24,000 bases of DNA from Dellaglioa kimchii (GCF_046115505.1 NZ_CP170737.1:15908-39907); one strand, 5' to 3'; shown: positions 1,097 to 23,298, counted from the first letter of the stretch. Program-made: numbers and translations. The notes: generated from the sequence alone by a model not told the origin.

Positions 1097-1139
1097 TTGT
1101 TTATCAATAAAAGAGAAATTAAATTTGGAGGGAAAAAGC

Positions 1140-3002
1140 ATGCAACAATATATATTAAGCAAAAAAAATGTTATCACCGTCATCAGTGGATTGTTAATCG
1201 CACTCGGTTTCTTCAGTCACTTTGTTTTAGAAAACGTAGGACTTTCAGAGTGGTCTTTGATCATCGCCTCTGTCTTTGGGATTATGCCAATTGCCATTCA
1301 AGCGTTTCAAGCAATGAAAGTCAAAGTCATCAGTATTGATGTCTTAGTTAGTATTGCAGCGATTGGTGCGCTTTTTATTCAAAATTATGAAGAATCGGCT
1401 ATTGTCACGTTCTTATTCTTATTCGGACACTACTTGGAACATCGAACATTGAACCAAACGCGATCTGCTATCAAAGAATTGACTGAAATGGCACCCGAAA
1501 GCGCCTTGAAACAAATGGATAATGGCGAATTTGAAGAAGTAGAAGTGGATGATGTAGATGAAGGGGATATCTTGCTCGTTAAAACGGGTGCGAAAGTTCC
1601 AGTAGATGGTACAGTTCTTACGGGTGAAGGGCATATCAATGAAGCTAGCATTACAGGTGAAGCTGTTCCGGTCAACAAGCTAGCTGATGCAGAAGTTTTT
1701 GCAGGAACCATTTTAGAAAACGGAACGATTCAAATCAGAGCTGACCGAGTTGGTGAGGACACCACATTTGGAAAAATTGTTGAACTCGTGGAAGAAGCAC
1801 AAGATTCTAAATCCGAAGCGGAACGGTTCATTGATCGCTTTTCTAAATACTACACACCAGCTGTCTTGGTCCTGGCAATTGTTGTATGGGCGTTCAGTCA
1901 AAATATTGAGTTAGCAATCACCATCTTGGTTCTAGGTTGCCCAGGCGCATTAGTTATCGGAGTGCCTGTCTCAAACGTTGCCGGTATTGGGAATGGTGCT
2001 CGTAACGGTGTTCTTTTAAAAGGGAGTGAAGTCATTCAAGACTTCAGCAATGTGGATACAATTGTATTTGATAAGACAGGTACTTTAACTGTCGGAAACC
2101 CAACCGTTGCAGCGACTGAACTGTATGAAAAAGATTCTGCTGAAACGCTTGGCTATCTGGCCAGTGTGGAACGGGAATCAGATCATCCATTAGCAAAAGC
2201 GGTCTTAAATCAAATTGGAGAAACAAACTTTTATCCTGTTGAAGAAACTGAAGTCGTGAAAGGCGGCGGAATCGTTTCAAGTGTAGCTGGACATAGAGTG
2301 GCTGTCGGGAATGTGGCCTTGATGGAAAAAGAAAATGTCACTCTCAGCAAAAAAGTGCAAAAAGATGTCAAACGGTTTGAACAACAAGGGAACTCTCTCG
2401 TTTTGACAGCGGTCGACGGTGAATTAAAAGTACTGATGGGCATTCGCGACCAAGTCCGTCCGGGTGTGAAAGCTAATTTGCAGGAATTAAAAGACCTGGG
2501 CGTAAAAAATCTAGTCGTTCTTTCAGGAGATAACCAAGGAACCGTTGATGTGGTCGCAGGCGAACTTGGTTTGACCGAAGCTCACGGCCACATGTTGCCG
2601 GAAGACAAATCGGCTTATATCGGAAAACTCCAACAACGTGGTCAAATTGTAGCCTTTGTTGGAGATGGCGTTAACGATAGTCCGTCCTTAGCTTTAGCAG
2701 ACATTGGCATCGCAATGGGAAGCGGAACGGACGTAGCGATCGAAACATCCGATGTCGTTTTAATGAACTCGAACTTCAGCAACTTGCCTCACGCATTAGG
2801 AATAGTAAAAGCTACCGCAAATAATATGAAACAAAATATCGCGATTTCAATTGGAGTAGTGTTGGTCTTGTTGACCAGCGTCTTCTTCAGCGAATGGATG
2901 AATATGTCTATCGGAATGTTGGTTCATGAAGGTAGTATCCTGGTGGTAATTTTCAATGCCATGAGATTAATGAAGTATAAGTTGAAAGGTCGAAAAGAAT
3001 AA
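1140..3002 (+). CDS. heavy-metal translocating P1B-type ATPase, 620 aa, no N-terminal metal-binding domain, CPG in place of the CPC/SPC motif
   Basis: Motifs present are ITGEAVP (actuator), FDKTGTLT (phosphorylation site), GDGVNDSPSL (hinge) and HEGSILVVIFNAMRL (last TM, as in Zn/Co-type pumps). The TM motif is LVLGCPGALVIGVP. The ORF opens at TTG 1125, but ATG 1140 is preceded by GGAGGG (1127-1132) at 7-nt spacing. Confidence 0.85.
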   Translation: MQQYILSKKNVITVISGLLIALGFFSHFVLENVGLSEWSLIIASVFGIMPIAIQAFQAMKVKVISIDVLVSIAAIGALFIQNYEESAIVTFLFLFGHYLEHRTLNQTRSAIKELTEMAPESALKQMDNGEFEEVEVDDVDEGDILLVKTGAKVPVDGTVLTGEGHINEASITGEAVPVNKLADAEVFAGTILENGTIQIRADRVGEDTTFGKIVELVEEAQDSKSEAERFIDRFSKYYTPAVLVLAIVVWAFSQNIELAITILVLGCPGALVIGVPVSNVAGIGNGARNGVLLKGSEVIQDFSNVDTIVFDKTGTLTVGNPTVAATELYEKDSAETLGYLASVERESDHPLAKAVLNQIGETNFYPVEETEVVKGGGIVSSVAGHRVAVGNVALMEKENVTLSKKVQKDVKRFEQQGNSLVLTAVDGELKVLMGIRDQVRPGVKANLQELKDLGVKNLVVLSGDNQGTVDVVAGELGLTEAHGHMLPEDKSAYIGKLQQRGQIVAFVGDGVNDSPSLALADIGIAMGSGTDVAIETSDVVLMNSNFSNLPHALGIVKATANNMKQNIAISIGVVLVLLTSVFFSEWMNMSIGMLVHEGSILVVIFNAMRLMKYKLKGRKE

Positions 3003-3096: not shown

Positions 3097-3138
3097 GGAA
3101 ACTCCCAGATTTAAAATTCTGGGAGTTTCCACTTTTTT
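3097..3138 (+). terminator. rho-independent terminator
   Basis: A perfect 13-bp stem GGAAACTCCCAGA / TCTGGGAGTTTCC (3097-3109 / 3118-3130) has an 8-nt loop and is followed by T6. Confidence 0.75.
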
Positions 3139-3617
3139 GAGTTCTTGAAAAAAAATAAGAGTATAGAGTATGCTCTTTATAAAATTAATTTTCGTGTGAA
3201 TGATTAAAAAATCTAATAATAAAATTTAAATTCCTATTAAGTTTTAACACATGAAATTACATAATTCATCATATTGGCTATATCGTGTTTACGATATTAA
3301 TAAGGAAGCAAAATTAGAGAAGTATCATGGCAATCTAGAACAATATTTTAGTTTTGAACCAACTGATTATCTTGCTTTGAAGAAAGATAATTAGAACGTA
3401 CAGGGCCCATTTTTATACTTTAATCTGGTAAATTTCTTATTCATGGCAGTAACTACTACGGTATATTTAATGTTTAAGTACATAAATATTTTTTATAATT
3501 TTGACTTATAATTCACTTGAAGGATATTTAATCTTTAGGATTGCCAAAAAATAACGTACTGAGATTATCTCAGCAAATGTTCATATAAATAACTAGAAAA
3601 TCGACAAATAAATAGAT

Positions 3618-3647
3618 ATAATTAATTTGTGATCTAAAATGATTATA
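3618..3647. promoter_or_regulatory. AT-rich imperfect inverted repeat upstream of the Fur-family gene (possible Fur/PerR-type box)
   Basis: ATAATTAATTT (3618-3628) versus the reverse complement of AAAATGATTAT (3637-3647) matches at 9/11. It ends about 18 nt before the start codon. The resemblance to the TTATAAT-N-ATTATAA type of box is only partial. Confidence 0.25.
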
Positions 3648-3664
3648 AATTAAAAAGGGGATAT

Positions 3665-4084
3665 ATGTCTGCATTAAATGAAATTATTGAAAAGTTACGT
3701 AGTGCTGGTTTTAAGGCTACGCCGCAACGAAAATCAATTATTCAATATTTAATAGATTCTGATACGCATCCAAGCGCTCAACAAATTTCTGATGATTTGC
3801 ATGCAAATTTGACTACAGTGTACAACACGCTAGCCATCTTAGAATCCGAAAATTTTGTTATCACAATTGAAAATGAGCAAAGTGGAGAGAAATCGTATGA
3901 TTTTTTCGATATACCACACTATCATTTAGTTTGTGTTCATTGTGGCAAGATTGAAGATAAATCAGATATTGATTTTGCGCCTTTATGGCAAAAGGTTCAA
4001 AATCATTCAACTTTTAAACCTAAGCAGATACATCTTGAATTTACGGGTGTATGTGCGCAGTGTCAGTTGAAAGGACTGCAATAA
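3665..4084 (+). CDS. Fur-family metalloregulator (Fur/PerR/Zur type), 139 aa
   Basis: The N-terminal winged helix reads ATPQRKSIIQYLIDSDTHPSAQQISDDL..VYNTLAILE. The structural Zn site is formed by paired CxxC motifs (CVHCGKIED ... CAQC). An SD AAAGGGG lies upstream. Confidence 0.85.
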   Translation: MSALNEIIEKLRSAGFKATPQRKSIIQYLIDSDTHPSAQQISDDLHANLTTVYNTLAILESENFVITIENEQSGEKSYDFFDIPHYHLVCVHCGKIEDKSDIDFAPLWQKVQNHSTFKPKQIHLEFTGVCAQCQLKGLQ

Positions 4085-4092
4085 ATATAGAT

Positions 4093-5037
4093 ATGACAAT
4101 ACAAATTAATCAAGCGCAAGACGTTTGGAAAGATGTAGGGCGGAGTGTTGACTTTATCGTCCTCAAGCTAAAGCGGGAAAATTTGGAACAAGACCAAGAA
4201 CAAATTGCTGACTTTTCTGATCGCTCACAAGCTATTCTTCGCTCGATGCAAATTAGAGCTGATAATGCTGATTTACGAATGAGTATAGGGTTTAGTTATG
4301 CGGCCTGGACCTATTTATTTCCCAATGCTAATGTGCCGAGTGAACTAGAATCATTTAAAGGATTAAATGGACCAGAGTACGCGATGCCTGCAACAGACGG
4401 CGATGTATTTATTCACGTACGAGCTAAAGAAGAGGCAGTTGTTTATGAAACTGTTTCCCAATTAATGCAATTTTTAAGTCCAATTGCCGAAGTTATTGAT
4501 GAAACAAAAGGATTTCGTTATTTTGAAGGGCGTGCCATTATTGGTTTCATCGATGGTACGGAAGCACCGAGTGCAGTAGACGCAGCTGAATATGCACTAA
4601 TTGGTGAAGAAGATTCTGAATTTGAAAATGGCTCGTATGCTTTTGCTCAAAAGTGGATTCATGATATGAATTTTTGGAAAAGTTTATCAACCGATACACA
4701 AGAAAAAGCAGTTGGAAGGCAGAAATTTACGGATTTAGAGTTAGATGACGACGATAAATTTGCAAATGCTCATAATGTGGCTTCAAAACTTGAAATTGAT
4801 GAAAAAGAGCAGAAGATTGTTCGTATGAACGTTCCTTTTTCTGATTTGAACACGAAACAAGTGGGTACCTACTTTATTGGTTATGCACGCCATTGGGAAG
4901 TAACTAAGGGTATGTTAAATCAGATGTTAGAAAAATCAGATTACTTGCTAACCTTCTCTCAAATTGTTAGCGGTCAACTCTTTTTTATTCCGTCTCGTCC
5001 AATGTTAGATAATATTGCCAGCGGCGAATTGTTCTAA
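4093..5037 (+). CDS. Dyp-type (dye-decolorizing) haem peroxidase family protein, 314 aa
   Basis: Family motifs are GDVFIHVRAKEE and IIGFIDGTEAPS (the GxxDGTENP-type motif). The start was moved to ATG 4093 (MTIQINQAQDVWKD) because the tracked start at 4051 overlaps the Fur stop. Neither start has a good SD, so the start is uncertain. Confidence 0.8.
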   Translation: MTIQINQAQDVWKDVGRSVDFIVLKLKRENLEQDQEQIADFSDRSQAILRSMQIRADNADLRMSIGFSYAAWTYLFPNANVPSELESFKGLNGPEYAMPATDGDVFIHVRAKEEAVVYETVSQLMQFLSPIAEVIDETKGFRYFEGRAIIGFIDGTEAPSAVDAAEYALIGEEDSEFENGSYAFAQKWIHDMNFWKSLSTDTQEKAVGRQKFTDLELDDDDKFANAHNVASKLEIDEKEQKIVRMNVPFSDLNTKQVGTYFIGYARHWEVTKGMLNQMLEKSDYLLTFSQIVSGQLFFIPSRPMLDNIASGELF

Positions 5038-5058
5038 AATAATAGAGGAGAGTGGCTG

Positions 5059-6346
5059 ATGACATTAATACGACTTGTAAGTGTGCGCTTAATCTTGTGG
5101 TTTTTTATCTTAATTTTATTACCGTTGCCGTTCATTGTTCTGTTACTAACTGAGTTATCGATGCAATTTAGTTCTACTTTGTTTGGTATTATTGCTGGTT
5201 TGGTAGGCTACATTTGGATGTTACTAAGCATGTACTTGAGTACACGGCCACATTTGGTTAGATCGCTTAATTGGATTGCCAGAAGTATATATGATGCATG
5301 GGCTAGTGGCGTTAGTTGCAATTTTATCAGCTTGGATTCACAAAATGTTAGTGCACTCTGGTGGAATGATTTCATTAACAGGTGATGTTGGTTTATATAT
5401 TTTTTCTGGTGTTTTAGCTTACTCACTGGTGATGATGGCTGGATGGATAACGCGAAAAATAGTATTTTTACAAGCGATGAAACAATACTTTAGTAGATTT
5501 ATAAATCATGAATGGAGTGTTTGGTTGCATCGTTTGAATGTGGTAGGTGTTGTTGTTATATTTTTTCATGTTCAACTAATTGGTTATATCAGTCGATTGA
5601 ATGGCTTTATGGATTTATTTGATGGATTTTCGTTTATTGTAATCGGATACTACTTTTTTTATAAATGGATACAGCCACATTTAGATATAAGTGCGCAACT
5701 AATCGGTCGAACGGAAATTGGTGATAACATTCAAGAGTTAACAGTGCAATTGCCACCAAAATATCGATGGCACGCAGGTGACTGGTTATTTATTCGTTTT
5801 CCACACTATAAAGAGTTACGTGAGGCTCATCCATTTTCTATTGTGAACTTGCCAGATGAAACAGGTAGATTGAAGTTAGCAATTCGAGGTGACGGTGATT
5901 TTACTAGATACTTAAAAACATTATCGCCAGAAATAGAAGGAATTCATGTGAAATTAACAAGGCCATTTGGACAGTATCATCAATTTTTGAAGCAACATCA
6001 TGAAGATCAGCCATTGATTATTGTTGCTGGTGGAATTGGCATTACACCGTTTATATCTATTGCTCAAATGGCAGTGCAAAGACAACAACCAGTGACGTTT
6101 CTTTACTCAACTAAACACGAAAAGGATGCTATTTATTTAGATGAATTGACGAAGTTTAATCAAAGCGATATTTATTTCAAACATCAAGTAGGGCGGTTTT
6201 CTGATACACAAATTGTGGACATGATGCAAAAAAATGGTATCTATTTGCTGGCTGGTCCACATGCCATGACCAAATATTGGCGAAATTTTTTGAAAAATAG
6301 AGGCGTTGCGGATAGCAGTATTTATTTTGAACCCTTTGAGTGGTAA
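5059..6346 (+). pseudogene. NOX/FRE-type ferric-reductase-domain flavocytochrome (6-TM bis-haem domain fused to an FNR-like FAD/NAD(P)H domain), split by a frameshift near 5248-5252
   Basis: ORFs 5059-5385 and 5276-6346 join as ..YLSTRP|IWLDRLIGLPEVYMMHG.. if one nt is removed. The span is 1288 nt, one more than a multiple of 3. H-x13-H (HGLVALVAILSAWIH) and H-x12-H (HRLNVVGVVVIFFH) haem ligand pairs are present, together with HPFS (FAD) and GGIGITP (NAD(P)H) motifs. An SD GAGGAG precedes ATG 5059. Confidence 0.75.
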
Positions 6347-6441
6347 GCCGATAAGCTATTAGCAGCTATTAATGTAAAGGAAAGCACATTATGTTAACTC
6401 GGAATTACTAACAATTCTAATGTTAGAAAGGTAGACAAAAA

Positions 6442-6806
6442 ATGAGGTTATGGCACGAATCGTTAATTACAAAATTACCACGTCAACAATTGCTTGGACA
6501 ACATAGAGAGTGCTGTGCACTTCGTGGCGGCGGTGGGGGAAAAGGCACGCAACAGTGGATTATGTCTTTATTTACTCTCCATATAAATTGTTTAAATACC
6601 ACAAATTAGTTATGACGGAGATGTTAAATCGCGGATACAAACCGAATGAAAATTGGCTAAATCCTTTGTATCGTGGAAATAATATGATTCCTTATAAGTC
6701 CCTGCCTATTGAAGCATCAACTTATCCTATTTATCCTGAACACGACCATAATTATTTAATTGAATGTATTCAAAATTTGAGAAAAAAAGGTATTGAAATA
6801 AAATAA
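6442..6806 (+). pseudogene. pyrimidine-dimer DNA glycosylase (endonuclease V/DenV-like) family gene, frameshifted in a G-rich tract
   Basis: ATG 6442 gives MRLWHESLITKLPRQQLLGQHRECCALRG. The family sequence continues in another frame as WGKRHATVDYVFIYSPYKLFKYHKLVMTEMLNRGY (ORF 6510-6806). The shift falls in GGCGGCGGTGGGGG (6526-6539). The span is 365 nt, one less than a multiple of 3. Confidence 0.7.
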
Positions 6807-7188: not shown

Positions 7189-7605
7189 ATGAAAAAAATT
7201 TATTTTTTATGTACAGGAAATTCTTGTCGCAGTCAAATGGCTGAAGGATATGCAAAAAAAATATTGCCGGCAAATGAGTTTCAAATCGAGAGTGCAGGGA
7301 TTGAAACTCATGGGTTAAATCTAAATGCTGTTAAAGTTATGGCTGAAGATGGAGTAGATATTAGTAGCCACTACTCTAAATTAATTGATCTAAATTATTT
7401 GAACACTTCAGATTTAGTTATTACTTTATGTGGTGATGCCAAGGATAAATGTCCTATGCTTCCCCCTCAAACCAAGAGTTTACACTGGCCTTTATCTGAC
7501 CCAGCGCAAGCCACAGGAACTTTAGAAGAACAACTACAAGAATTCCGTAAGGTTCGTGACGAAATTAAAAAATTAGTTACAAGTTTGAATAACTACGTTC
7601 ATTAA
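7189..7605 (+). CDS. arsC: arsenate reductase, thioredoxin-coupled LMW-PTPase type (pI258 ArsC type), 138 aa
   Basis: The catalytic P-loop is [13 protein letters not shown]. The downstream Cys pair context is [14 protein letters not shown]. An SD TAGGTGG lies upstream. No arsR, arsB or acr3 gene is adjacent. Confidence 0.9.
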
Positions 7606-9933: not shown

Positions 9934-10419
9934 CTACAAATAATAATTCAGTAAGATACCAACGCCATAAGCAACAATTGCAGCGACGTACCCGACAGAA
10001 AGTGTGCGTAGAATTTCTGTTCTTACTTTCTGCTCTGACAGGTTGGCCTTCACCCAGCCTAGCAACGCCAAAGAGACACCGACGATGACAAAGGCGATTG
10101 GAAAGGCGATGTCTTTGTCGTGAATGAGCGCATTTGTAATTAAGTAGGCACCTAGTGGAATTAAACCGAAGACGTTAAACGAAATGAATGTCGCGATACC
10201 AGCTGCCAATGCTTTACTTTTTGATTGATTGTTATCCGATGTTGCTGACAGGTAGGCACCGGCCCCCATTGAAAAGCCATCGGCTAATAAGTTTGAGAAT
10301 CCCAAAATGATGATAACGATGTTTGAAACGTTACCACCGACCGATCCAGCAACGACTGCGAACGTCGTGATAATGCCATCTAAGCCACCGTAGACGATGG
10401 CTGAAACGTGTTTTTTCAT
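9934..10419 (-). CDS. VIT1/CCC1-family (Fe/Mn) transporter-like membrane protein, short form, 161 aa
   Basis: The N-terminal signature is AIVYGGLDGIITTFAVVAG, followed by LADGFSMGAGAYLS and several TM segments. There is no ferritin-like N-domain. Confidence 0.8.
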   Translation of the reverse strand: MKKHVSAIVYGGLDGIITTFAVVAGSVGGNVSNIVIIILGFSNLLADGFSMGAGAYLSATSDNNQSKSKALAAGIATFISFNVFGLIPLGAYLITNALIHDKDIAFPIAFVIVGVSLALLGWVKANLSEQKVRTEILRTLSVGYVAAIVAYGVGILLNYYL

Positions 10420-11076: not shown

Positions 11077-11769
11077 TTAACTTGATACAAATAATAATTC
11101 ATCTAAATCAAATATCTCAACACATTTTTGGGTATGCCGTTTAATTAGACCTCTCTCTTCCAATGATGAGAACTTACGGCTTATTGTTTCTGGAGTTGTC
11201 CCCAGGTAAGTAGCCAAATCTTTTTTTGACATGGGTAAAGTCACATAAGTATGGTTTTTTTCATCTTCAACATTTTCTGATAGAAAATCAATAATTCGAG
11301 CTTCAACAGGTTCAGTACTGACTTGCACAGTTTGTTTTTCTGATAACTGTAGCCGTTTTGTAATATCCGATAATATTCGTCGCATGATTTCTGGATAGAG
11401 ATCTAAATATTGATCTAAATTCTTTTTATGAATCCTACAAATACTTGTTTCCGATATTGCTTCAGCATAATTCGAATGATAACTTTCAGTCTGTAAAATA
11501 GCAACTTCCCCCATAAAATCACCAGGATGTAGGATGCGTATAGTTTGCTCACGACCAGACTCACTTAGGCTATAAATACGTACACGTCCATTGTTTATGA
11601 TATATAATGTGTCATCTTTATCACCAAACCTAAATAATAGCTCATTCTTTACGTATTGTACTTCATTCGCTGATTGAGCAATTAGACGCATTTGTTCATC
11701 ATTGAGATGATTGAAAATCGGCACTAAACGTATACAATCTACATGACTATGATGATTATGGTTTGCCAT
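11077..11769 (-). CDS. flp: FNR-like protein (FLP), Crp/Fnr-family regulator, 230 aa
   Basis: It has a cNMP-binding-like beta-roll (RIYSLSESGREQTIRILHPGDFMGE). The C-terminal HTH recognition helix is TPETISRKF (the E--SR motif of FNR). The N-terminus reads MANHNHHSHVDCIRLVPIFNHL. Cys12 and Cys111 follow the two-Cys pattern described for Lactobacillus casei FLP. Confidence 0.85.
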   Translation of the reverse strand: MANHNHHSHVDCIRLVPIFNHLNDEQMRLIAQSANEVQYVKNELLFRFGDKDDTLYIINNGRVRIYSLSESGREQTIRILHPGDFMGEVAILQTESYHSNYAEAISETSICRIHKKNLDQYLDLYPEIMRRILSDITKRLQLSEKQTVQVSTEPVEARIIDFLSENVEDEKNHTYVTLPMSKKDLATYLGTTPETISRKFSSLEERGLIKRHTQKCVEIFDLDELLFVSS

Positions 11770-11964: not shown

Positions 11965-12507
11965 ATGTATCATGTACCAAAACAAAAAACCACTAGGGTA
12001 TACAATATCGATACAGATTATGTAAATCAATTACATAGCATAGATAAAAAAGTAGAATACCACCATGGAGAACATGATAAACCGTATTTGGGTATCATAT
12101 TAGAAATTAACGGTACAAATTATTTTGTTCCTCTTTCATCACCAAAGCCGAAGCATAATCGAATGTCTGAAAATATCACTTTTAAAAAGATAGAAAAAGA
12201 TGGACACTTATTTGCTGTTTTAAATATTAACAATATGATCCCTGTTCCACTGAATTTATGTAAAGAAATTGACATTGATAATATTTCAGATACTTACTAC
12301 AAACACTTATTAAATCAGGAATACTTTATTTGCAAGCGAAAGAAAAGAGACATTATGAAGTCAGCCGGCATAGTTCATAAATGTATTTGTGAGGAGCCTG
12401 AAAGCCATGAAAAAATGTTGAGCCGAGAAAATAAGATTTATGAAGAAAGCAATTTTAATATTCTTTTTCGGTTGATTCTGATTCGAGTGATTATGGTCTT
12501 TATCTGA
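11965..12507 (+). CDS. ToxN/AbiQ-family type III toxin-like endoribonuclease; ends may not be native
   Basis: PYLGIILEINGTNYFVPLSSPKPKHNRM and VLNINNMIPVP match the AbiQ/ToxN core pattern (GI-LEI-G--Y-aPL-SPK-kH; MIP). There is no SD before ATG 11965. About 10 extra N-terminal residues are present. The last ~15-30 codons are antisense to a separate minus-strand gene start. Confidence 0.65.
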   Translation: MYHVPKQKTTRVYNIDTDYVNQLHSIDKKVEYHHGEHDKPYLGIILEINGTNYFVPLSSPKPKHNRMSENITFKKIEKDGHLFAVLNINNMIPVPLNLCKEIDIDNISDTYYKHLLNQEYFICKRKKRDIMKSAGIVHKCICEEPESHEKMLSRENKIYEESNFNILFRLILIRVIMVFI

Positions 12508-13042: not shown

Positions 13043-13170
13043 AAAGTGGATTCATTACGATTTACTTTTGGAATAAACGAAAGGAGTCAGAAATAGCAGA
13101 AATTTATGTGATTCAAGAAGTAAATGATGGAAAACAAAGGAATTATAAATTATATAGGGAGGCAATAGAA

Positions 13171-15102
13171 GTGAAAACTATCCAAGAACAACAGTCTCAA
13201 GAAAAGCATAATCATAATCACAACCACGATCACGACCATGATCATGGGAAAATGCCAGTCGTTTTGTACTTTGTTGGTTTAGCATTAGCAGTGATTGCTC
13301 TATTTTTGAATGAAGATTATCAGTTGGTACAAAATGTTTTGTTCTCAATCGCTACAATCAGTGCCGGGTATCACGTTATTCTTCTTGAAGGCCTTGGAGA
13401 AACAATTGAGAATTCAAAAGCACAAAAAAAGTTCATACCTAATTCTCATATTTTAATGGGATTAGCGGCAATTGGAGCTTCTTTGATGGGGAATTTTTGG
13501 GAAGGAACATTATTGATTCTTATTTTTTCTGGCGCACATTTTTTGGAAGATTATGCAGAAGGAAGAAGCAAACGAGAAATAACGAAATTACTCGAAATGA
13601 ATCCAACGACTGCCCGGTTAATCCTGCCTGATGGTAGTACAAAAAATGTGGATGTCAGTGAATTAAAAGTGGGAGATCAACTTCAAGTGTTGAATGGCGA
13701 TCAAGTACCTATTGATGGCGTCATTTTGTCTGGATCTACATCCATTGATGAGTCGTCTATTAATGGAGAAAGTATCCCGAAAGAGAAATCCAAAGGAGAT
13801 GGCGTCTTCGGGAGTACAATCAATGGAACAGGTACCTTCACGATGAAAGTCACCAAAGAAAACAAAGATACAGTATTTTCAAAAATTTTACAATTAGTGA
13901 ATCAGAACCAAGATAACCAAACAAAAGCTGCGAGTATTATCCAAAAATTTGAACCGAAATATGTCACAGTTGTTTTAATTGCCATTCCTCTATTCATGTT
14001 ATTGGCTCCTTTTCTACTTGATTGGACATGGTCACAAAGTGTCTATAGAGGATTGGTCCTTTTAGTTGCAGCTTCACCGTGTGCTTTAGCAGCAGCTACT
14101 GTCTCGGCAACGCTATCGACGACTTCTAATTTAGCCAAAAAAGGAGTCCTTTCAAAAGGTAGTTCTTACCTGTCTCAATTAGCCGATATTAAAGCAATTG
14201 CATTTGATAAGACGGGCACCTTGACCAAAGGAAAACCTGAAGTAACCAATTATTATTTTGCTGATTCCGTGAACGAAGAAAACATGATTGATATCGTAGT
14301 AGCTCTTGAAAAAGAATCCAATCACCCCTTAGCAGATGCTATTCTAAGAAAGTTTGAGCAAAAAAACAAACTAACTATTGAAGTAGAAAACCAAATTGGT
14401 AAAGGATTGACGGGAGATTACAAAGGGAGAAATTATCGTATAGGAAAACCGACTTCGTTTGATGATGTTTCAGATGAATATAGTCGTTTAAATAATGAAT
14501 GGGCATCAGAAGGTAAGACAGTCGTATACGTAGCAGTAGATGAAGAGGTTATAGGCCTTATTGCCCTTATGGACGTTCCGAGTGAATATGCTAAAGAAAC
14601 CATTGAATATTTTAGGAAACAAGGTATACACACCACATTAATTACTGGTGACTCAGAAATGACGGGAAAAGCGGTTGCTAAACAATTAGGAATAGATGAA
14701 GTGATTACGAATGTCATGCCGGAAGACAAATCCAGAATTATAGACGAACAAAAAGAAAAATACGGCGTGACCGCCATGGTTGGAGACGGTGTAAATGATG
14801 CTCCTGCTCTTGTTAATGCAGATGTGGGAATCGCTATGGGAGATGGGACTGATGTGGCAGTAGAGGTATCTGATTTAGTTTTAATGCAAAACAATTTATC
14901 TAAATTGGTACAATCTCATAATATTTCTTCGAAAATGAACCGTGTTATTTGGCAGAATATTATTTTTTCAATGGCCGTTGTTGCTTTTTTAATTGTCGTT
15001 AGTTTCTTAGGCTTAACGGATATTGCAATCAGTGTCATTATTCATGAAGGAAGTACTTTGGTTGTTATTTTGAATGGACTTCGATTGCTAAAGGCAGTCT
15101 AA
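13171..15102 (+). CDS. P1B-4-type (SPC motif) heavy-metal ATPase with a His-rich N-terminus, 643 aa from GTG 13171
   Basis: Motifs are the N-terminal HNHNHNHDHDHDHG, the TM motif AASPCALAAAT, FDKTGTLT, GDGVNDAPAL and HEGSTLVVILNGLRLL. The actuator loop reads SSINGESIP (NGE where TGE is usual). GTG 13171 has the SD GGGAGG 8 nt upstream. The tracked start at 13108 has no SD within range. Confidence 0.85.
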   Translation: MKTIQEQQSQEKHNHNHNHDHDHDHGKMPVVLYFVGLALAVIALFLNEDYQLVQNVLFSIATISAGYHVILLEGLGETIENSKAQKKFIPNSHILMGLAAIGASLMGNFWEGTLLILIFSGAHFLEDYAEGRSKREITKLLEMNPTTARLILPDGSTKNVDVSELKVGDQLQVLNGDQVPIDGVILSGSTSIDESSINGESIPKEKSKGDGVFGSTINGTGTFTMKVTKENKDTVFSKILQLVNQNQDNQTKAASIIQKFEPKYVTVVLIAIPLFMLLAPFLLDWTWSQSVYRGLVLLVAASPCALAAATVSATLSTTSNLAKKGVLSKGSSYLSQLADIKAIAFDKTGTLTKGKPEVTNYYFADSVNEENMIDIVVALEKESNHPLADAILRKFEQKNKLTIEVENQIGKGLTGDYKGRNYRIGKPTSFDDVSDEYSRLNNEWASEGKTVVYVAVDEEVIGLIALMDVPSEYAKETIEYFRKQGIHTTLITGDSEMTGKAVAKQLGIDEVITNVMPEDKSRIIDEQKEKYGVTAMVGDGVNDAPALVNADVGIAMGDGTDVAVEVSDLVLMQNNLSKLVQSHNISSKMNRVIWQNIIFSMAVVAFLIVVSFLGLTDIAISVIIHEGSTLVVILNGLRLLKAV

Positions 15103-18253: not shown

Positions 18254-19585
18254 TTAAATTAATGTTCTAATTTTATATGCTAAACCAGGGAAAGCCATTA
18301 CCATCTTTTCTTTCCAAACCTCTGGATCAACATCAATTGCCATAACAGGAATTAGTGAATTGATATCATCTACTGCTGTTTGGCTAATTTCAGCAGCGCC
18401 CACGAGATGATTTTGCTTGTCAAAGACTAATGATAATCGTGCGTGATCATCTGTTCCAGCATAAAAAAAGTCACCTTGAGTAATATCAATATCTTTAATT
18501 GAATAATTACTGTCTTCCTTTGCTTTATCAATACTAATTCCAGCTTGAGCGAGTTGGGGGAATGTGAACGTAACGGTTCCAATTACTGGGTACCTAAGAG
18601 GTTCAGTTGTTTTATTAGTAAGTAAGGCACTTAAGTAGTCTGCTTCAAACTGTGCCGTAGAGGTTAATGCTGGTGCGGTTTTATCAACAATATCGCCCAT
18701 TGCGTAAATGTTATTTGCTGATGTGGTCAAATATTTATCAACTTTAATTCCGCGGTTGCTGTACTCTACACCAGCATTATCAAGTTTCAATGCATTAATT
18801 TCAGGAACTCTACCACTGGCATTAATAACTTTATCAAAAGTGCCAAGGTTGCCGTTAGCTGATTGAACCTCATAGCCAGTTTGTGCTTCGGTAACAGCTG
18901 TAACATTTGTGTTAAATATAAAATTAATACCAAGTGAGTTTTTCATTTCATCAACTAACTGATGAACGTGTTGGCTGTAAAATCCCTCTAGTGGTTGGCC
19001 GGATCGGACAATAACTGTTACTTTAACCCCGGCAGCAGACAACAATGTAGCAAATTCCATACCAACGTAACCACTTCCGATAATTGCGACGTTCTTTGGA
19101 GTATCTTCGAGTTCAAAAAGGTTAGTACTAGTAAGTAGGTACTCGTGGCCAGGAATGTTAAGAGGATGCGGCTTTTTTCCGGTTGCGATTACAAAATTAT
19201 CAGCAGTGATTTTTTTATTATTAACTTCAATGGTATGTTGATCAACAAATGATGCTTCACCCTTGATGGTAGTCGCACCCAGGCCTTCATACATACTTTG
19301 CATATTATTTAGGAATGACGCCATAGCCTTATTCTTTTGCTGAATAAGTTCTTTCCAGTCAAGCTTAGCTGGTTGAGTAATTCCCTTACCTTGCAAACGC
19401 ATTGAAGTTAAGGTTGCTCGTGCTGCTCCTTCTAAGAAAATCTTGGGTTCGCAGCCTTCGTTAGGGCAAATTCCGCCAAACCGATTCTTTTCAACAACCG
19501 CGATTTTCTTTCCGCTATTCTGCATTCCCAATAGGAAACGATAAACTGATGGCCCACTGCCAATAACAACGTAGTCAAACTTCAT
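18254..19585 (-). CDS. class I pyridine-nucleotide-disulfide oxidoreductase, glutathione-reductase-like, 443 aa
   Basis: The FAD fold is DYVVIGSGPS. The redox-active CxxxxC is GGICPNEGCEPK. The NAD(P)H fold is VAIIGSGYVGMEF. The C-terminal region reads VMAFPGLAYKI where GR and LipDH have the HP---E dyad, so the His-Glu pair appears to be missing. Confidence 0.8.
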   Translation of the reverse strand: MKFDYVVIGSGPSVYRFLLGMQNSGKKIAVVEKNRFGGICPNEGCEPKIFLEGAARATLTSMRLQGKGITQPAKLDWKELIQQKNKAMASFLNNMQSMYEGLGATTIKGEASFVDQHTIEVNNKKITADNFVIATGKKPHPLNIPGHEYLLTSTNLFELEDTPKNVAIIGSGYVGMEFATLLSAAGVKVTVIVRSGQPLEGFYSQHVHQLVDEMKNSLGINFIFNTNVTAVTEAQTGYEVQSANGNLGTFDKVINASGRVPEINALKLDNAGVEYSNRGIKVDKYLTTSANNIYAMGDIVDKTAPALTSTAQFEADYLSALLTNKTTEPLRYPVIGTVTFTFPQLAQAGISIDKAKEDSNYSIKDIDITQGDFFYAGTDDHARLSLVFDKQNHLVGAAEISQTAVDDINSLIPVMAIDVDPEVWKEKMVMAFPGLAYKIRTLI

Positions 19586-19602
19586 TTATAGCTTCCCTCC
19601 AT

Positions 19603-19734
19603 TTATTTTGTTTTCTTCTTCTTATCCTCAGTTTGCTTTTGATGTTCAGAGATATTACAACCGTCTGGCCCACATACAGCAGCATCATTATTATCGCCAA
19701 ATATTGTATTAAATTGTGGCTTATCTTCGGTCAT
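19603..19734 (-). CDS. small 43-aa Cys-pair protein absent from the ORF track (MTEDKPQFNTIFGDNNDAAVCGPDGCNISEHQKQTEDKKKKTK)
   Basis: A strong SD TAGGAGGAA lies 6 nt before ATG 19734. The gene fills the 161-nt gap between the DsbA-like and reductase genes on the same strand. It carries a CGPDGC motif and a Lys-rich tail. Confidence 0.5.
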   Translation of the reverse strand: MTEDKPQFNTIFGDNNDAAVCGPDGCNISEHQKQTEDKKKKTK

Positions 19735-19746
19735 CGTAAATTCCTC

Positions 19747-20394
19747 CTAATTTTCTTCTTCTTGAACTCGCTTTAAGGCTTTAACAAAAACTTCATATGG
19801 TTGGGCACCACTAATTGCATACTTATTATTGATTACAAAAAAAGGTGCAGCATGAATACCGGATTGTTGAGCCTCTGCCTCGTCATTGACCACAGCTTGA
19901 TGATATTGGTTAGAATTAAGCACTTTTTCTACTTCGTCTTTAGCAAGCCCAGCTTCCATTGCCGCATTTAATAGCACATCATGGTCAGAAATCGATTGAC
20001 CATCACTAAAGTAAACTTGGTAGAAGCGTCTAATTACTCGTTCAGTCAAATCAGGATCATTTTTAGCTTCTGCGAATTTAATAATCCGGTGCGCATCCAT
20101 AGTATTTGTAGGTACTACACTGTCAAGATCCATTGGTAGACCATCGTTATGCGCCATTTGTTCGATGTAAGCCATTTGCTTTTTGGCCTGTGGCTCCATT
20201 GCCTTATTTCCCTGAGTGAAGTGATTAATGTATCCTTCATCGGTTTCCTTTGGTGTTGCAGGGTTAAGCTCGAATGATTTGAACTCTAATTCAGTTGTGT
20301 CATAAATACCAATTTCCTTCATTGCTCGTTTCATTCGGTTAGAACCGATATAACAAAAGGGGCAAGCAATGTCTGACCAATATTTGATTTCCAT
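19747..20394 (-). CDS. DsbA-family thiol oxidoreductase, FrnE-like subgroup (cytoplasmic), 215 aa
   Basis: The N-terminal active site is WSDIACPFCYIG. The C-terminal region GIHAAPFFVINNKYAISGAQPYEVF is typical of FrnE/DsbA-like proteins. No signal peptide is present. Confidence 0.85.
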   Translation of the reverse strand: MEIKYWSDIACPFCYIGSNRMKRAMKEIGIYDTTELEFKSFELNPATPKETDEGYINHFTQGNKAMEPQAKKQMAYIEQMAHNDGLPMDLDSVVPTNTMDAHRIIKFAEAKNDPDLTERVIRRFYQVYFSDGQSISDHDVLLNAAMEAGLAKDEVEKVLNSNQYHQAVVNDEAEAQQSGIHAAPFFVINNKYAISGAQPYEVFVKALKRVQEEEN

Positions 20395-20412
20395 AAAGTA
20401 ATTTTCCTCTCT

Positions 20413-21357
20413 TTAATCTTTAACCGTTTGCCGATGCTTTATGGCTTCGAAATATTCAAAGGCGTTTTGCCCAGCAATACCACCATCGCCAACCGCAGTG
20501 GTAATTTGCCGCAGTTGCTTTTGCCGGACATCACCAATTGCATAGATTCCAGGAATTGTTGTTTCCATTTGATCGTTAGTTATAATCCAACCAGCTTGAT
20601 CGGTAATATTTAAATTATTGAAAATTTGGCTATTTGGAAAGTTACCGACATAAACGAAAACTCCATCAGTGTCTAGAGTTGTATCATCACCGACCTGATT
20701 GTTATGAATTTTTACTCCAGTAACATGATTTTCATCACCTAAAATCTCTGTCACACTAGTATTCCAAGTGAAATCTATCTTATCGTTATCAAAAGCACGA
20801 TTTTGTAATACCTTTTGTGCCCGTAACTGATCGCGACGATGAATGACATTAACTCCATCAGTGACATTAGCTAAGTACAATCCTTCAGAAATTGCTGAAT
20901 CACCACCGCCAACTACAGTAACATTCTTTCCTTTAAAGAAAGAACCATCACATACTGCACAGTAAGAAACCCCTTTTCCGGAGAACTTTTCTTCACCTGG
21001 TACACCTAATTTTCGATTATTAGATCCTGTTGCAATAATTACTGCGCTTGCTACTAACTCGTCACTATCGGTTTGAATATGCTTCATTTGTTGATCATCA
21101 ACGGTAACGTTTTGGACATCACCATATACAAAATTTACTCCGGCCTTAACGGTTCCTTGATACATTTTCTCACCAAGTTCAGGACCCTTAATTGTTGTAA
21201 AACCAGGGTAGTTTTCAATGTCATCGGTGTTGTTCATTTGTCCACCATAAATACCGCGATCAAGCATTGCTACATTTAAATTAGCTCGTGCTGCATATAA
21301 GGCAGCGGTCATTCCACCAGGACCGGCCCCAATCACTACTACATCATATTTCCTCAT
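20413..21357 (-). CDS. trxB: thioredoxin-disulfide reductase, 314 aa
   Basis: It has VVVIGAGPGGMTAALYAAR (FAD), the redox centre SYCAVCDGSFF (CAVC), VVGGGDSAISEG (NADPH) and GIYAIGDV. Confidence 0.9.
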   Translation of the reverse strand: MRKYDVVVIGAGPGGMTAALYAARANLNVAMLDRGIYGGQMNNTDDIENYPGFTTIKGPELGEKMYQGTVKAGVNFVYGDVQNVTVDDQQMKHIQTDSDELVASAVIIATGSNNRKLGVPGEEKFSGKGVSYCAVCDGSFFKGKNVTVVGGGDSAISEGLYLANVTDGVNVIHRRDQLRAQKVLQNRAFDNDKIDFTWNTSVTEILGDENHVTGVKIHNNQVGDDTTLDTDGVFVYVGNFPNSQIFNNLNITDQAGWIITNDQMETTIPGIYAIGDVRQKQLRQITTAVGDGGIAGQNAFEYFEAIKHRQTVKD

Positions 21358-21380
21358 TAAATTTCAATCCAATCTACTTA

Positions 21381-21576
21381 TTAGTCGTCACGTAACGCTA
21401 ATCCCTTATCCAATGAACGATTAACAATGACTTCTTGTGCATCAATAATGGTTAACCACTATATAATCTAAATGGTCTTGGTCTTTATGGGTTTCAGTTT
21501 TCTTATTAAGGAGTCGGACATAACTTTCAGTTGCTAACGTCCCCATACCGCCAAGAATAGTTAAAAAACTCTTCAT
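21381..21576 (-). pseudogene. aspartate/glutamate-racemase-family remnant (N-terminal 44 codons plus a short out-of-frame C-terminal piece)
   Basis: It reads MKSFLTILGGMGTLATESYVRLLNKKTETHKDQDHLDYIVVNHY*, with the racemase motif GGMG--AT, then an internal deletion. Its ATG overlaps the preceding stop (TAATG). Confidence 0.55.
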
Positions 21577-21898
21577 TAGTTAATAGTGTTGGTAATGAAG
21601 TTTTCGACTTCTTCTTTAGTCTTCCGATCTTTATTGACAAGCCTTCCGATTTCTTGCCCATCTCTAAAAATAACGAAGCTTGGAATACCAAAGATATTTA
21701 GTTCTTGAGCCAATTCGGTATTCTCATCACGATCGACACTGATGAAAGTGTAATCTTTGAATTCTTGTTCAATTTCTGGTAGATGAGGCTTGATAAAGCT
21801 ACAATCAGGGCACCAAGAAGCTATAAAAATTAAAATATATTTTCCATTCTTCAGTTTTTTATCAAATTCTTTTTATTCATTACTGATAGTTGTTCCAT
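21576..21898 (-). pseudogene. thioredoxin-family gene (WCPDC active site) with a frameshift in a homopolymer
   Basis: The SD GAGGGGAG and ATG 21898 give MEQLSVMNKK. After a run of 5 A (plus strand T5, 21870-21874) the frame must shift to read EFDKKLKNGKYILIFIASWCPDCSFIKPHLPEIEQEF...GIPSFVIFRDGQEIGRL...*. The span is 323 nt, one less than a multiple of 3. The ORF track misses it because the long frame has no start codon. Confidence 0.65.
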
Positions 21899-21918
21899 TT
21901 AGCTTCTCCCCTCTTAAC

Positions 21919-22233
21919 CTAATTAGTATATTGAGCAAGAACGGTTTTAAGTTGGTCCTTACTGTGGAGGCCAACCAGCTTATCAACTACTTGGCCATCT
22001 TTTTTGATAATTAAGGTTGGAATAGACATAATTCCAAATGCCATTGGTGTTTTTTGATTTGCATCTACGTCCATTTTAGTGATTTTGACTTTATCGCCAA
22101 TTTCTTTATCAAGTTGTTCAATAATCGGTCCTTGCATTCGACATGGAGGACACCAAGTAGCCCAAAAATCAGTTAATGTAACACCGGTACTAGTTTCTTT
22201 CACAAAGTCTTTGTCAGTTAAGTTCTTAACCAT
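21919..22233 (-). CDS. trxA: thioredoxin, 104 aa, WCPPC active site
   Basis: It reads VTLTDFWATWCPPCRMQGPIIEQL...MSIPTLIIKKDGQVVDKLVG, with canonical Trx length and cis-Pro context, but CPPC instead of CGPC. An SD AAAGGAG lies upstream. Confidence 0.85.
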   Translation of the reverse strand: MVKNLTDKDFVKETSTGVTLTDFWATWCPPCRMQGPIIEQLDKEIGDKVKITKMDVDANQKTPMAFGIMSIPTLIIKKDGQVVDKLVGLHSKDQLKTVLAQYTN

Positions 22234-22246
22234 AAGAGTCGCTCCT

Positions 22247-22528
22247 TTATAGGTAATATTTAATTAAAGTTGTTAATTGTGATTGATCAATAAAACGGGT
22301 AATTTTTTCAACGATTTTTCCATCACGCAGCAAAATAGTACTGGGTGCGGAATAAACATTGTATTTTTTTGCTAGTTCTGGGTGAGCATCTGAATTCACT
22401 ACCCGAACGTTTAAATATGAATTAAAGTCATGGCTAATCTTATTTATTATTGGTCGCTGCGTATAACACTGGGCGCACCAATTATTCTCAAAATTAATTA
22501 AGGTTAGCGTTTTATCAATAGTAGACAA
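22247..22528 (-). CDS. thioredoxin-like protein, 93 aa, WCAQC motif
   Basis: It reads LINFENNWCAQCYTQRPIINKI...YSAPSTILLRDGKIVEKI, a Trx fold pattern. The start is TTG with a weak SD (AAAGG). Confidence 0.65.
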   Translation of the reverse strand: MSTIDKTLTLINFENNWCAQCYTQRPIINKISHDFNSYLNVRVVNSDAHPELAKKYNVYSAPSTILLRDGKIVEKITRFIDQSQLTTLIKYYL

Positions 22529-22546
22529 GTTATGTCACTGCCTTTC

Positions 22547-22574
22547 AATTATTCAATTGTTTACTTGAATAGTT
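22547..22574. promoter_or_regulatory. 10-8-10 inverted repeat AATTATTCAA-ttgtttac-TTGAATAGTT in the leader of the thioredoxin operon
   Basis: The arms match at 9/10. The half-site TTGAATAGTT recurs in the palindrome upstream of the ArsR-rhodanese gene. Confidence 0.3.
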
Positions 22575-22610
22575 CAATAATATCATATACTTTTTGTAAG
22601 TCAATATAAA

Positions 22611-22645
22611 AGCACGATTTAATCAATAAATGACTAAATCGTGCT
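22611..22645 (-). terminator. terminator-like hairpin after the ArsR-rhodanese gene
   Basis: AGCACGATTTA-13 nt-TAAATCGTGCT forms an 11-bp stem. On the minus strand it is followed by TTTTATATT. Confidence 0.5.
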
Positions 22646-22653
22646 TAAACTGT

Positions 22654-23298
22654 TTATTCTGTTATTTTATTCCAATCATAGTGACTTGAATTTAAACTAA
22701 CTGCGTCAAAACCATTTCTATTTAAGATCTGTGTGGCAATGTTGGAATTAGCACATAGTCTTCCGCGGCAATAAACAATAATCTTTTGATCTTTAGGTAA
22801 TTTGGGCATTGATTCTTTTAATGTTTCCAATGGGACATTAATTGCCGATTGTATGTGGCCTGCTGCATATTCATCAGAAGGTCGTACATCAAGGACAAAG
22901 CTATTTTCGTATTCTTCTTGAGCTTGCTTTAAGGAAATGGTTTTAACGTTATCTTGAGCGTCTGATTTATCCTGAATTGTTTTCATATCTGAAAGTTCAC
23001 TGTTGCCAATATCGGTTAATAGGTGCACAAGATCACTAATTTTGGGAGAACTAAGGCTATAAATAATATGATTGCCTTTTCGTTTTGTTTTAACCAGATG
23101 ACTGTCCTTCAATATTTGTAGATGGCGTGAGGCGTTAGCTACACTTATTCCGACCCCGTTGGCAATAGTTTCAACTGATTTGGGTGCTTGAGTTAAAAGA
23201 TCAAGAATTTCTAATCGTCGATCACTGCTTAGCCCCTTACCAATTTTAGATAGTTCTTTATATAGTCCATTTTTGTAGTTAACTGCTTGTTCAAACAT
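22654..23298 (-). CDS. ArsR-family HTH fused to a C-terminal rhodanese domain, 214 aa
   Basis: The N-terminal half is DRRLEILDLLTQAPKSVETIANGVGISVANASRHLQILKDSHLV (ArsR HTH). The C-terminal half is FVLDVRPSDEYAAGHIQSAINVP...IIVYCRGRLCANS (rhodanese active-site loop CRGRLC). Confidence 0.8.
   Translation of the reverse strand: MFEQAVNYKNGLYKELSKIGKGLSSDRRLEILDLLTQAPKSVETIANGVGISVANASRHLQILKDSHLVKTKRKGNHIIYSLSSPKISDLVHLLTDIGNSELSDMKTIQDKSDAQDNVKTISLKQAQEEYENSFVLDVRPSDEYAAGHIQSAINVPLETLKESMPKLPKDQKIIVYCRGRLCANSNIATQILNRNGFDAVSLNSSHYDWNKITE

Follow-up and report, generated by a model that had tools for sequence, protein, structure and literature searches.

Units in which the gene of a Fur-like redox sensor adjoins that of a haem peroxidase are already known. 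In furA-katG of mycobacteria and furS-cpeB of Streptomyces, the gene of a Fur-like regulator stands next to that of the haem peroxidase it controls, and katA is under the control of PerR. A pair of this kind is found in a stretch of 24,000 nucleotides (nt) from Dellaglioa kimchii (GCF_046115505.1, NZ_CP170737.1:15908-39907), hereafter the window, to whose positions all coordinates refer unless a locus label with the prefix L is given. As in furA-katG and furS-cpeB, a Fur-family regulator gene stands beside a haem peroxidase gene; unlike in these systems, the peroxidase is a DyP, a gene for a NOX-like flavocytochrome is attached, and the whole is plasmid-borne in a lactic acid bacterium. The trio is a recent plasmid-specific mosaic and not a conserved three-part system. 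With moderate confidence, we interpret it as a perR-dyp operon, autoregulated and responsive to peroxide, that is carried on a Leuconostoc stress plasmid together with a NOX-like passenger, dispensable and often decayed.

The three genes lie on the plus strand. The regulator gene (3665-4084) encodes a protein of 139 amino acids, which its open reading frame, domain and ligands identify as a PerR-type member of the Fur family; the peroxidase gene (4093-5037) encodes a cytoplasmic class B (i.e., P-type) DyP of 314 amino acids; and the SpNOX-like flavocytochrome gene (5059-6346) is split in the window, the intact gene of related plasmids encoding 428 amino acids. The first two genes are separated by 8 nt (4085-4092) and the last two by 21 nt (5038-5058), and the Pfam domain E-values of the genes are far beyond chance. 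A previous interpretation made from the DNA sequence by itself (the sequence-only reading) had described three tightly packed co-directional genes with these same gaps, and all of them are in place. It had further proposed that they make up one functional module; its family assignments and motifs, the broken frame that it had noticed in the third gene and the likely dependence on haem are borne out by the results below, whereas conserved synteny and iron sensing are not.

The regulator matches PF01475 (FUR) over residues 14-126 with E=2.5e-20. The structural CxxC pairs attributed to it earlier are present as C90/C93 and C130/C133, which correspond to a Cys4 structural zinc site and are invariant in the regulator alignment. 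Its predicted regulatory-site ligands, H35, D79, H85, H87 and D98, align in a phmmer alignment to 2fe3 with H37, D85, H91, H93 and D104, the corresponding ligands of Bacillus subtilis PerR. The last ligand of this site is Asp in PerR and Glu in Fur. The best solved relatives are Streptococcus pyogenes PerR (4i7h, E=4e-21) and B. subtilis PerR (2fe3, E=1e-18), PerR structures outrank all Fur and Zur structures as matches, and the top NCBIfam match is the PerR model NF052545, with 86.3 bits. Given the five regulatory ligands including the Asp, the Cys4 site and PerR proteins as the closest solved relatives, the regulator looks like a peroxide sensor of the PerR type rather than an iron sensor. 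Hence, of the metal or peroxide sensor suggested by the sequence-only reading, the peroxide half is favoured, and the iron half is disfavoured by the ligand set and the closest structures.

In comparison with characterised PerR proteins (B. subtilis 2fe3 and 3f8n, S. pyogenes 4i7h), the regulator shares the fold, the Cys4 site and the five regulatory ligands, and it differs in scoring below the NCBIfam cut-off, in a 5-residue deletion, in being plasmid-borne, and in having a DyP rather than a catalase as its peroxidase. Identity to any other representative protein is 34-41%. The closest relative in a word-indexed search, P0242 (locus L105), is 53% identical and shares with the window regulator a loop shortened by 5 residues ahead of the recognition helix; its gene is followed by a VIT1 gene. 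A 39%-identical relative is encoded divergently from, and adjoins, a 720-amino-acid PF00141 peroxidase that is KatG-like.

The region before the regulator gene contains a candidate promoter and a candidate operator. The promoter-like site (3594-3622, plus strand; TAGAAA-17 nt-TATAAT) matches the consensus at 10/12 positions; this is a consensus match only, and the region does not hold more sites of this kind than shuffling leads one to expect. The candidate operator (3622-3653, plus strand) is an inverted repeat, TTAATTTGTGATC/GATTATAAATTAA, which contains a 7-1-7 site resembling a PerR box, CTAAAATGATTATAA, at 3634-3648, with 2 mismatches to TTATAATNATTATAA. It follows the predicted -10 box and precedes the ribosome-binding site, 17-31 nt before the regulator ATG, and nowhere else in the window does a sequence match the PerR box with 2 mismatches or fewer.

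Comparison with related loci strengthens the operator reading. In L105, two perfect PerR boxes stand in the promoter of the 53%-identical regulator, at an equivalent position relative to the ribosome-binding site, a result reached in 0/5000 shuffles, and the dyp gene of Latilactobacillus curvatus has a box with 1 mismatch 38 nt before its ATG (P=0.004). The core AATGATTATAAAT is common to the window site, the L105 boxes and the L. curvatus dyp box. The candidate AT-rich 7-1-7 operator at the regulator's own promoter, perfect in the closest homologue and with 2 mismatches in the window, would be a further likeness to PerR. In the L108 operon, with gene order VIT1-VIT1-fur, a palindromic variant of the PerR box is found 43 nt upstream (P=0.018). 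In L. curvatus (L093:4806-5000, CP117684.1), dyp, whose product is 53.5% identical to the window DyP, is divergent from the pyruvate oxidase gene spxB, and the 1-mismatch box lies in the intergenic region common to both. The spxB product makes H2O2. The L. curvatus dyp/spxB box suggests that DyP may be part of a peroxide regulon in Lactobacillaceae, and a haem peroxidase as the predicted target recalls katA under PerR.

The PerR-box scan of the whole window found none upstream of its two P-type ATPase genes or its VIT1 gene, and a plasmid-wide PerR regulon, which had been considered, is unsupported. A scan with the Fur box (TGATAATNATTATCA, at most 3 mismatches) found nothing near the operon, with counts below chance.

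The DyP has both domains of its family (PF04261, E=3.9e-17; PF20628, E=2.6e-41), the two motifs that had been named for it, GDVFIHVRA and GFIDGTEAP, and a score of 185 bits against TIGR01413 (E=2e-54), above the cut-off of 100.5. It matches PDB 7ylo with E=2.4e-108, a structure for which our literature search found no describing paper, and DypB with E=3.6e-59; D154 (in GXXDG), the proximal H227 and the distal R244 and N246 align with D153, H226, R244 and N246 of DypB (3qnr). Against the EfeB/deferrochelatase equivalog TIGR01412 it reaches 41.5 bits, far below the cut-off of 428. The N-terminus, MTIQINQAQDVWKD, has neither a twin-arginine (Tat) nor a hydrophobic leader, and no signal peptide is found. 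Given the absent signal peptide and the score far below the EfeB cut-off, domain and motif evidence makes the protein a cytoplasmic DyP haem peroxidase of class B/P. In this it is like the class B DyPs Rhodococcus jostii DypB (3qnr), BtDyP (2gvk) and 7ylo, with about 314 amino acids, no signal peptide and the catalytic residues kept, and it falls outside the EfeB class of Tat-exported enzymes. An EfeB-type role was rejected on the equivalog score, the lack of a Tat signal, and the lack of neighbouring efeU or efeO, neither of which occurs in the window. No haem biosynthesis or uptake genes were found in the window, and the host genus is not known to make haem. In comparison with the class B enzymes, activity of the window DyP would need exogenous haem.

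The 8- and 21-nt gaps without a terminator are a layout typical of an operon, and on this ground we infer co-transcription of the three genes. A strong hairpin resembling an intrinsic terminator (3097-3130, plus strand; a stem of 13 bp, then a run of T) sits 3' of the upstream P-type ATPase gene and marks the upstream boundary of the unit. The scan found no convincing terminator between the three genes, the nearest thing to one being a weak 5-bp match at 5015-5027, which still belongs to the 3' end of dyp. Gene callers in public collections place the DyP start at ATG 4051, which gives 328 amino acids and a 34-nt overlap with the regulator gene; ATG 4093 is backed by RefSeq and by all homologues (313-316 amino acids). 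Translation from ATG 4093 may depend on translational coupling.

The flavocytochrome gene is interrupted in the window. It consists of two overlapping open reading frames in different frames, one of 108 amino acids (5059-5385) and one of 356 (5276-6346), the latter carrying the FAD_binding_8 and NAD_binding_1 domains; no gene record was found on look-up for the product of the latter. Alignment to the intact 1287-nt gene of plasmid NZ_CP015248.1 (Leuconostoc suionicum DSM 20241), annotated as 'FAD-binding oxidoreductase' and encoding 428 amino acids, locates one extra T at about 5251-5253 (plus strand), where a TTT run replaces the TT of the intact allele. Window positions 3400-6400 are 99.9% identical to this plasmid (megablast). 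The resulting +1 frameshift falls after codon 65, past the first two transmembrane helices (TM1-TM2) and before the first haem-ligand His, and the 108-amino-acid frame keeps 65 native residues. Given that the same 108-amino-acid product is found in an independent read assembly from run SRR31512413, the frameshift is probably a real mutation rather than an error of the record, although the run could come from the same strain. Sequencing error was accordingly rejected as the leading view.

The protein features that follow refer to the repaired, intact 428-amino-acid form (P0001). All the motifs of a bis-haem flavocytochrome listed by the sequence-only reading are there: H80-x13-H94, H157-x12-H170, HPFS at residue 257 and GGIGITP at residue 324. 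The four His residues, HPFS and GGxG are invariant across 20 homologues. PF08022 (E=1e-8) and PF00175 (E=1.4e-7) are matched, and the sequence filters of Hajjar 2017 (PMC5676040) are passed with HPFSI, GIGITP and two His pairs. The match to SpNOX is full-length (phmmer, E=2.6e-16), at about 20% identity. The AlphaFold model has a pLDDT of 88.8 and six transmembrane helices (4-32, 35-60, 73-97, 102-125, 150-173 and 181-208), of which TM3 and TM5 each hold one of the His pairs. The top Foldseek matches of the model are the SpNOX structures 8qt6, 8qta and 8qq7 (lowest E-value 4e-22; TM-scores of 0.72-0.77), followed by DUOX1, NOX5 and NOX2. PF01794 (Ferric_reduct) gives no match even at E<=1, and is carried only by distant homologues (at most 27% identity). 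The full-length architecture is thus common to the window flavocytochrome and SpNOX (PDB 8qq7, 8qt6), from which it differs in the low identity, the lack of a PF01794 match, the frameshift, and a family that is usually found with ApbE and an FMN-binding protein.

The latter association emerged from a census of the flavocytochrome family with one genome per species, comprising 80 loci. ApbE and/or FMN_bind, confirmed with Pfam, are encoded in the flanks of 66/80: ApbE in 63/80, typically immediately upstream, and FMN_bind in 58/80, further upstream on the same strand. The usual order on one strand is FMN_bind, ApbE, flavocytochrome (e.g., L004:4718-7257, L018:4751-7278 and L110:2783-5269). The host groups of these loci (L004-L082) are Lactobacillaceae, Streptococcaceae and Bifidobacterium, and an operon of this order is also present in Leuconostoc pseudomesenteroides. 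Neither apbE nor FMN_bind is among the scanned open reading frames of the window, and neither is near the 62%-identical flavocytochromes.

The papers on the SpNOX structure left the physiological acceptor open, and their authors doubt that it is O2 (PMC11564096). Given the 66 loci with ApbE and/or FMN_bind, gene neighbourhood suggests a flavinylated extracytoplasmic protein, not O2 or Fe(III), as the acceptor of the SpNOX-type family, in place of the O2 or Fe(III) reduction considered in the sequence-only reading. Meheust et al. 2021 defined MsrQ-like systems by PF01794 (PMC8238504). The flavocytochrome loci mostly resemble these flavinylation systems, with ApbE and FMN_bind upstream on the same strand, whereas the window copy and its 62%-identical relatives have neither gene nearby. 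That survey described its systems as mainly actinobacterial, whereas the present clade is mostly from Lactobacillales and Bifidobacterium; given its lack of a PF01794 match, surveys based on this domain would miss it or cover it only in part.

Conserved synteny of Fur, DyP and flavocytochrome had been set beforehand as a test of the module proposed by the sequence-only reading, and the proposal fails it. Fur or DyP within 6 kb, as detected by tblastn and profile hidden Markov models, accompanies the flavocytochrome in 1/80 of the species loci, and this one is a 100%-identical copy in Leuconostoc inhae. Although the trio is common, all its copies are near-identical and belong to one Leuconostoc plasmid block, in the order Dps, Crp/Fnr, HMA, P-type ATPase, 47-amino-acid open reading frame, Fur, DyP, flavocytochrome and TIGR02328 pseudogene; the collection's index lists the DyP product for 196 blocks. 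Dps and P1B-type ATPase genes are classic members of PerR regulons, and their presence in the block is a further likeness to such a regulon.

Outside the block, the nearest relatives of each gene are in other contexts. Two 62%-identical flavocytochromes are encoded between an ABC transporter and a two-component system. Among the DyP relatives, that of Weissella confusa (70% identical) stands alone, a 57%-identical one adjoins DcuC and peptidase genes, and that of L. curvatus is, as described, divergent from spxB. In a metagenome-assembled genome from Lactobacillaceae, another 70%-identical DyP is encoded in the order VIT1-VIT1-Fur-phosphoribosyltransferase-DyP, with the Fur gene 1.2 kb upstream of the DyP gene and its product 37% identical to the window regulator. 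Hence, given the single locus with Fur or DyP and the different settings of the nearest DyP and Fur relatives, the trio is not conserved. The arrangement is lineage-specific, each part comes from a known family, and there is no evidence of functional coupling. The sequence-only reading knew of no characterisation of the trio as a unit, and we agree: literature searches on Leuconostoc plasmids with DyP, and on PerR with DyP, found nothing on this gene arrangement.

Within this lineage the flavocytochrome gene decays. In OZ061342.1 it is truncated to 271 amino acids, with fur and dyp intact. On the best reading of these data, it is a dispensable, often decayed passenger of the trio. Its last ~436 bp survive with the start of the TIGR02328 gene in NZ_CP013154.2, NZ_CP042391.1, NZ_CP016599.1 and NZ_CP016331.1; this remnant (window positions 5965-6400) occurs at 97-99% identity in Leuconostoc and Lactiplantibacillus plasmids, where it is annotated as a short 'iron reductase'. 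The 436-bp fragment is a recurrent recombination remnant.

The locus would then work as follows. The three genes would have been joined recently by recombination on a Leuconostoc plasmid for stress and metal resistance. The divergent PerR-type repressor probably binds the PerR-box-like operator that overlaps its own promoter (3594-3653). H2O2 would oxidise the metal-site histidines of the repressor, which would release it from DNA and allow transcription of the regulator, DyP and flavocytochrome genes together. Once loaded with exogenous haem, the DyP would consume H2O2 in the cytoplasm. The SpNOX/MsrQ-like enzyme would pass electrons from NAD(P)H to FAD and on through two b-type haems across the membrane, working in most relatives with the flavin transferase ApbE and a flavinylated FMN-binding protein. 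On the plasmid, it is parted from these partners and decays repeatedly, the window copy being disabled by the +1 frameshift.

Several results weigh against this account of an autoregulated perR-dyp operon with a passenger. The box at 3634-3648 is insignificant when taken alone, with 0.85 such sites expected per window and a 12% chance of one in the AT-rich intergenic region, and the DyP locus of W. confusa has no PerR box within 2 mismatches. The regulator's 86.3 bits are below the PerR equivalog cut-off of 180 for NF052545, and it is an outlier: it is itself the sole match with E<1e-30 among 1.84 billion representative proteins, the next best being 41% identical. Its closest relatives are linked to VIT1 iron transporters, as would also suit a role related to iron. 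The flavocytochrome gene could be transcribed separately from a promoter-like site at 5015-5043, and ATG 4093 of the DyP has no clear Shine-Dalgarno sequence. The flavocytochrome is intact, with 428 amino acids, in most copies and is spaced from dyp by only 21 nt, which argues against its being simply junk.

A rather unlikely alternative is that the trio serves iron acquisition or the use of haem iron, and is switched on under iron limitation, the Fur-family protein being an iron sensor, the flavocytochrome a ferric reductase, and the DyP a deferrochelatase or an extractor of iron from haem. The location of the closest regulator relatives in VIT1 operons, and of a VIT1 gene at 9934-10419 in the window, would suit this view; yet VIT1 beside a PerR-type regulator is just as compatible with the efflux of iron during peroxide stress, and PerR is known to control the iron exporters PfeT in B. 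subtilis and PmtA in S. pyogenes. Fur and PerR boxes are alike, but the regulatory region has no site within 3 mismatches of the Fur box, and the ligand set and closest solved relatives of the regulator are those of PerR. Although a DyP of Latilactobacillus sakei has been proposed to free iron from haem (bioRxiv 10.1101/864751), the window DyP has neither the EfeB score, nor the Tat N-terminus, nor the efeU or efeO neighbours of a deferrochelatase. The database names of the flavocytochrome family ('iron reductase' and 'predicted ferric reductase') and the ties of some MsrQ-like systems to VIT1 and iron assimilation (Meheust et al., PMC8238504) also speak for iron, whereas SpNOX is a poor ferric reductase (PMC11564096).

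It is quite improbable that the genes are merely juxtaposed by chance, through plasmid recombination, with independent regulation and with the targets of the Fur-like protein elsewhere. The plasmid is indeed a mosaic with integrases, an insertion sequence (IS) element, pseudogenes and gene fragments, and the different contexts of each gene's nearest relatives, the promoter-like site at 5015-5043 and the statistical weakness of the PerR-box match on its own all speak for this explanation. The short gaps without a terminator, however, are typical of an operon, and the PerR box before L. curvatus dyp, together with the metagenome-assembled genome in which a Fur-family gene precedes a 70%-identical DyP gene by 1.2 kb, indicates that the link between PerR-type regulators and DyP is not unique to the plasmid.

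Given the intact 428-amino-acid allele in most copies and the 21-nt spacing, there is a small chance that the trio, having arisen on Leuconostoc plasmids, does function as a unit, in which the PerR-type sensor induces two haem-dependent enzymes. If so, the NOX-like enzyme would pass NAD(P)H electrons across the membrane to O2 or to a flavinylated protein encoded by the host, the DyP would deal with peroxide that results from this or comes in, and the trio would be a transferable redox-defence kit for haem-scavenging lactic acid bacteria. A coupled generator and consumer of reactive oxygen species under a peroxide sensor controlling both, in which superoxide or H2O2 from the NOX-like enzyme would let the DyP oxidise a dedicated substrate, is very improbable: the two genes are 21 nt apart on one strand and intact in most plasmid copies, both enzymes need haem, and SpNOX reduces O2 in vitro (PMC5676040, PMC11564096), but the two families are together nowhere outside the one plasmid block, the DyP has no signal peptide and so would be cytoplasmic whereas the outer haem of NOX-type enzymes faces outward, the flavocytochrome is frameshifted, truncated or deleted in several plasmids with intact dyp, its usual partners are ApbE and FMN_bind and no peroxidase, and the SpNOX authors themselves doubt O2 as the physiological acceptor (PMC11564096).

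Most of the window consists of cargo for oxidative or metal stress. Besides the VIT1 gene, this cargo for metal and redox stress includes two P1B-type ATPases, ArsC (7189-7605), a Crp/Fnr regulator (11077-11769), and glutathione-reductase-like, DsbA-like, TrxB and two thioredoxin proteins. The ATPase at 13108-15102 carries the P1B-4 signature (SPC, HEGS), and its N-terminus, HNHNHNHDHDHDH, is rich in His; that at 1125-3002 has HEGS, an unusual CPG in place of SPC/CPC, and no HMA domain. A thiol-redox cluster on the minus strand (18254-23298) comprises the glutathione-reductase-like, DsbA-like and thioredoxin-reductase-like genes, the two thioredoxin genes, and a gene for an ArsR-rhodanese fusion regulator.

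After the flavocytochrome, the TIGR02328/Pyr_excise gene (6442-6806) is a pseudogene that has lost one G from a G-rich run at about 6531. It is split into open reading frames of 55 and 64 amino acids in all related plasmid contigs, an intact reference being that of the Leuconostoc lactis plasmid NZ_CP042391.1 (L002:6479-6844). A ToxN-family gene, of type III toxin-antitoxin systems and abortive infection, is found at 11965-12507; a tandem-repeat search found no ToxI-like repeats upstream of it. An Rfam scan of the window at gathering thresholds detected no RNA family, and a similarity search of the window against phage records gave no match.

The value of these results is mostly negative: the combination of Fur, DyP and NOX is not conserved but is the mosaic of one plasmid lineage, and so is not to be taken for a new functional module. 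The finding that the SpNOX-like family is accompanied by ApbE and/or an FMN-binding protein in 66/80 species bears on its physiological acceptor. As a compact case that lends itself to testing, the locus pairs a very divergent PerR-type regulator with its candidate target, a DyP, and the PerR boxes at a related regulator gene and at a related dyp gene in other Lactobacillaceae lend support to a link between PerR and DyP. If this link is true, DyP enzymes would belong to the means by which lactic acid bacteria that are poor in catalase and scavenge haem defend themselves against peroxide.

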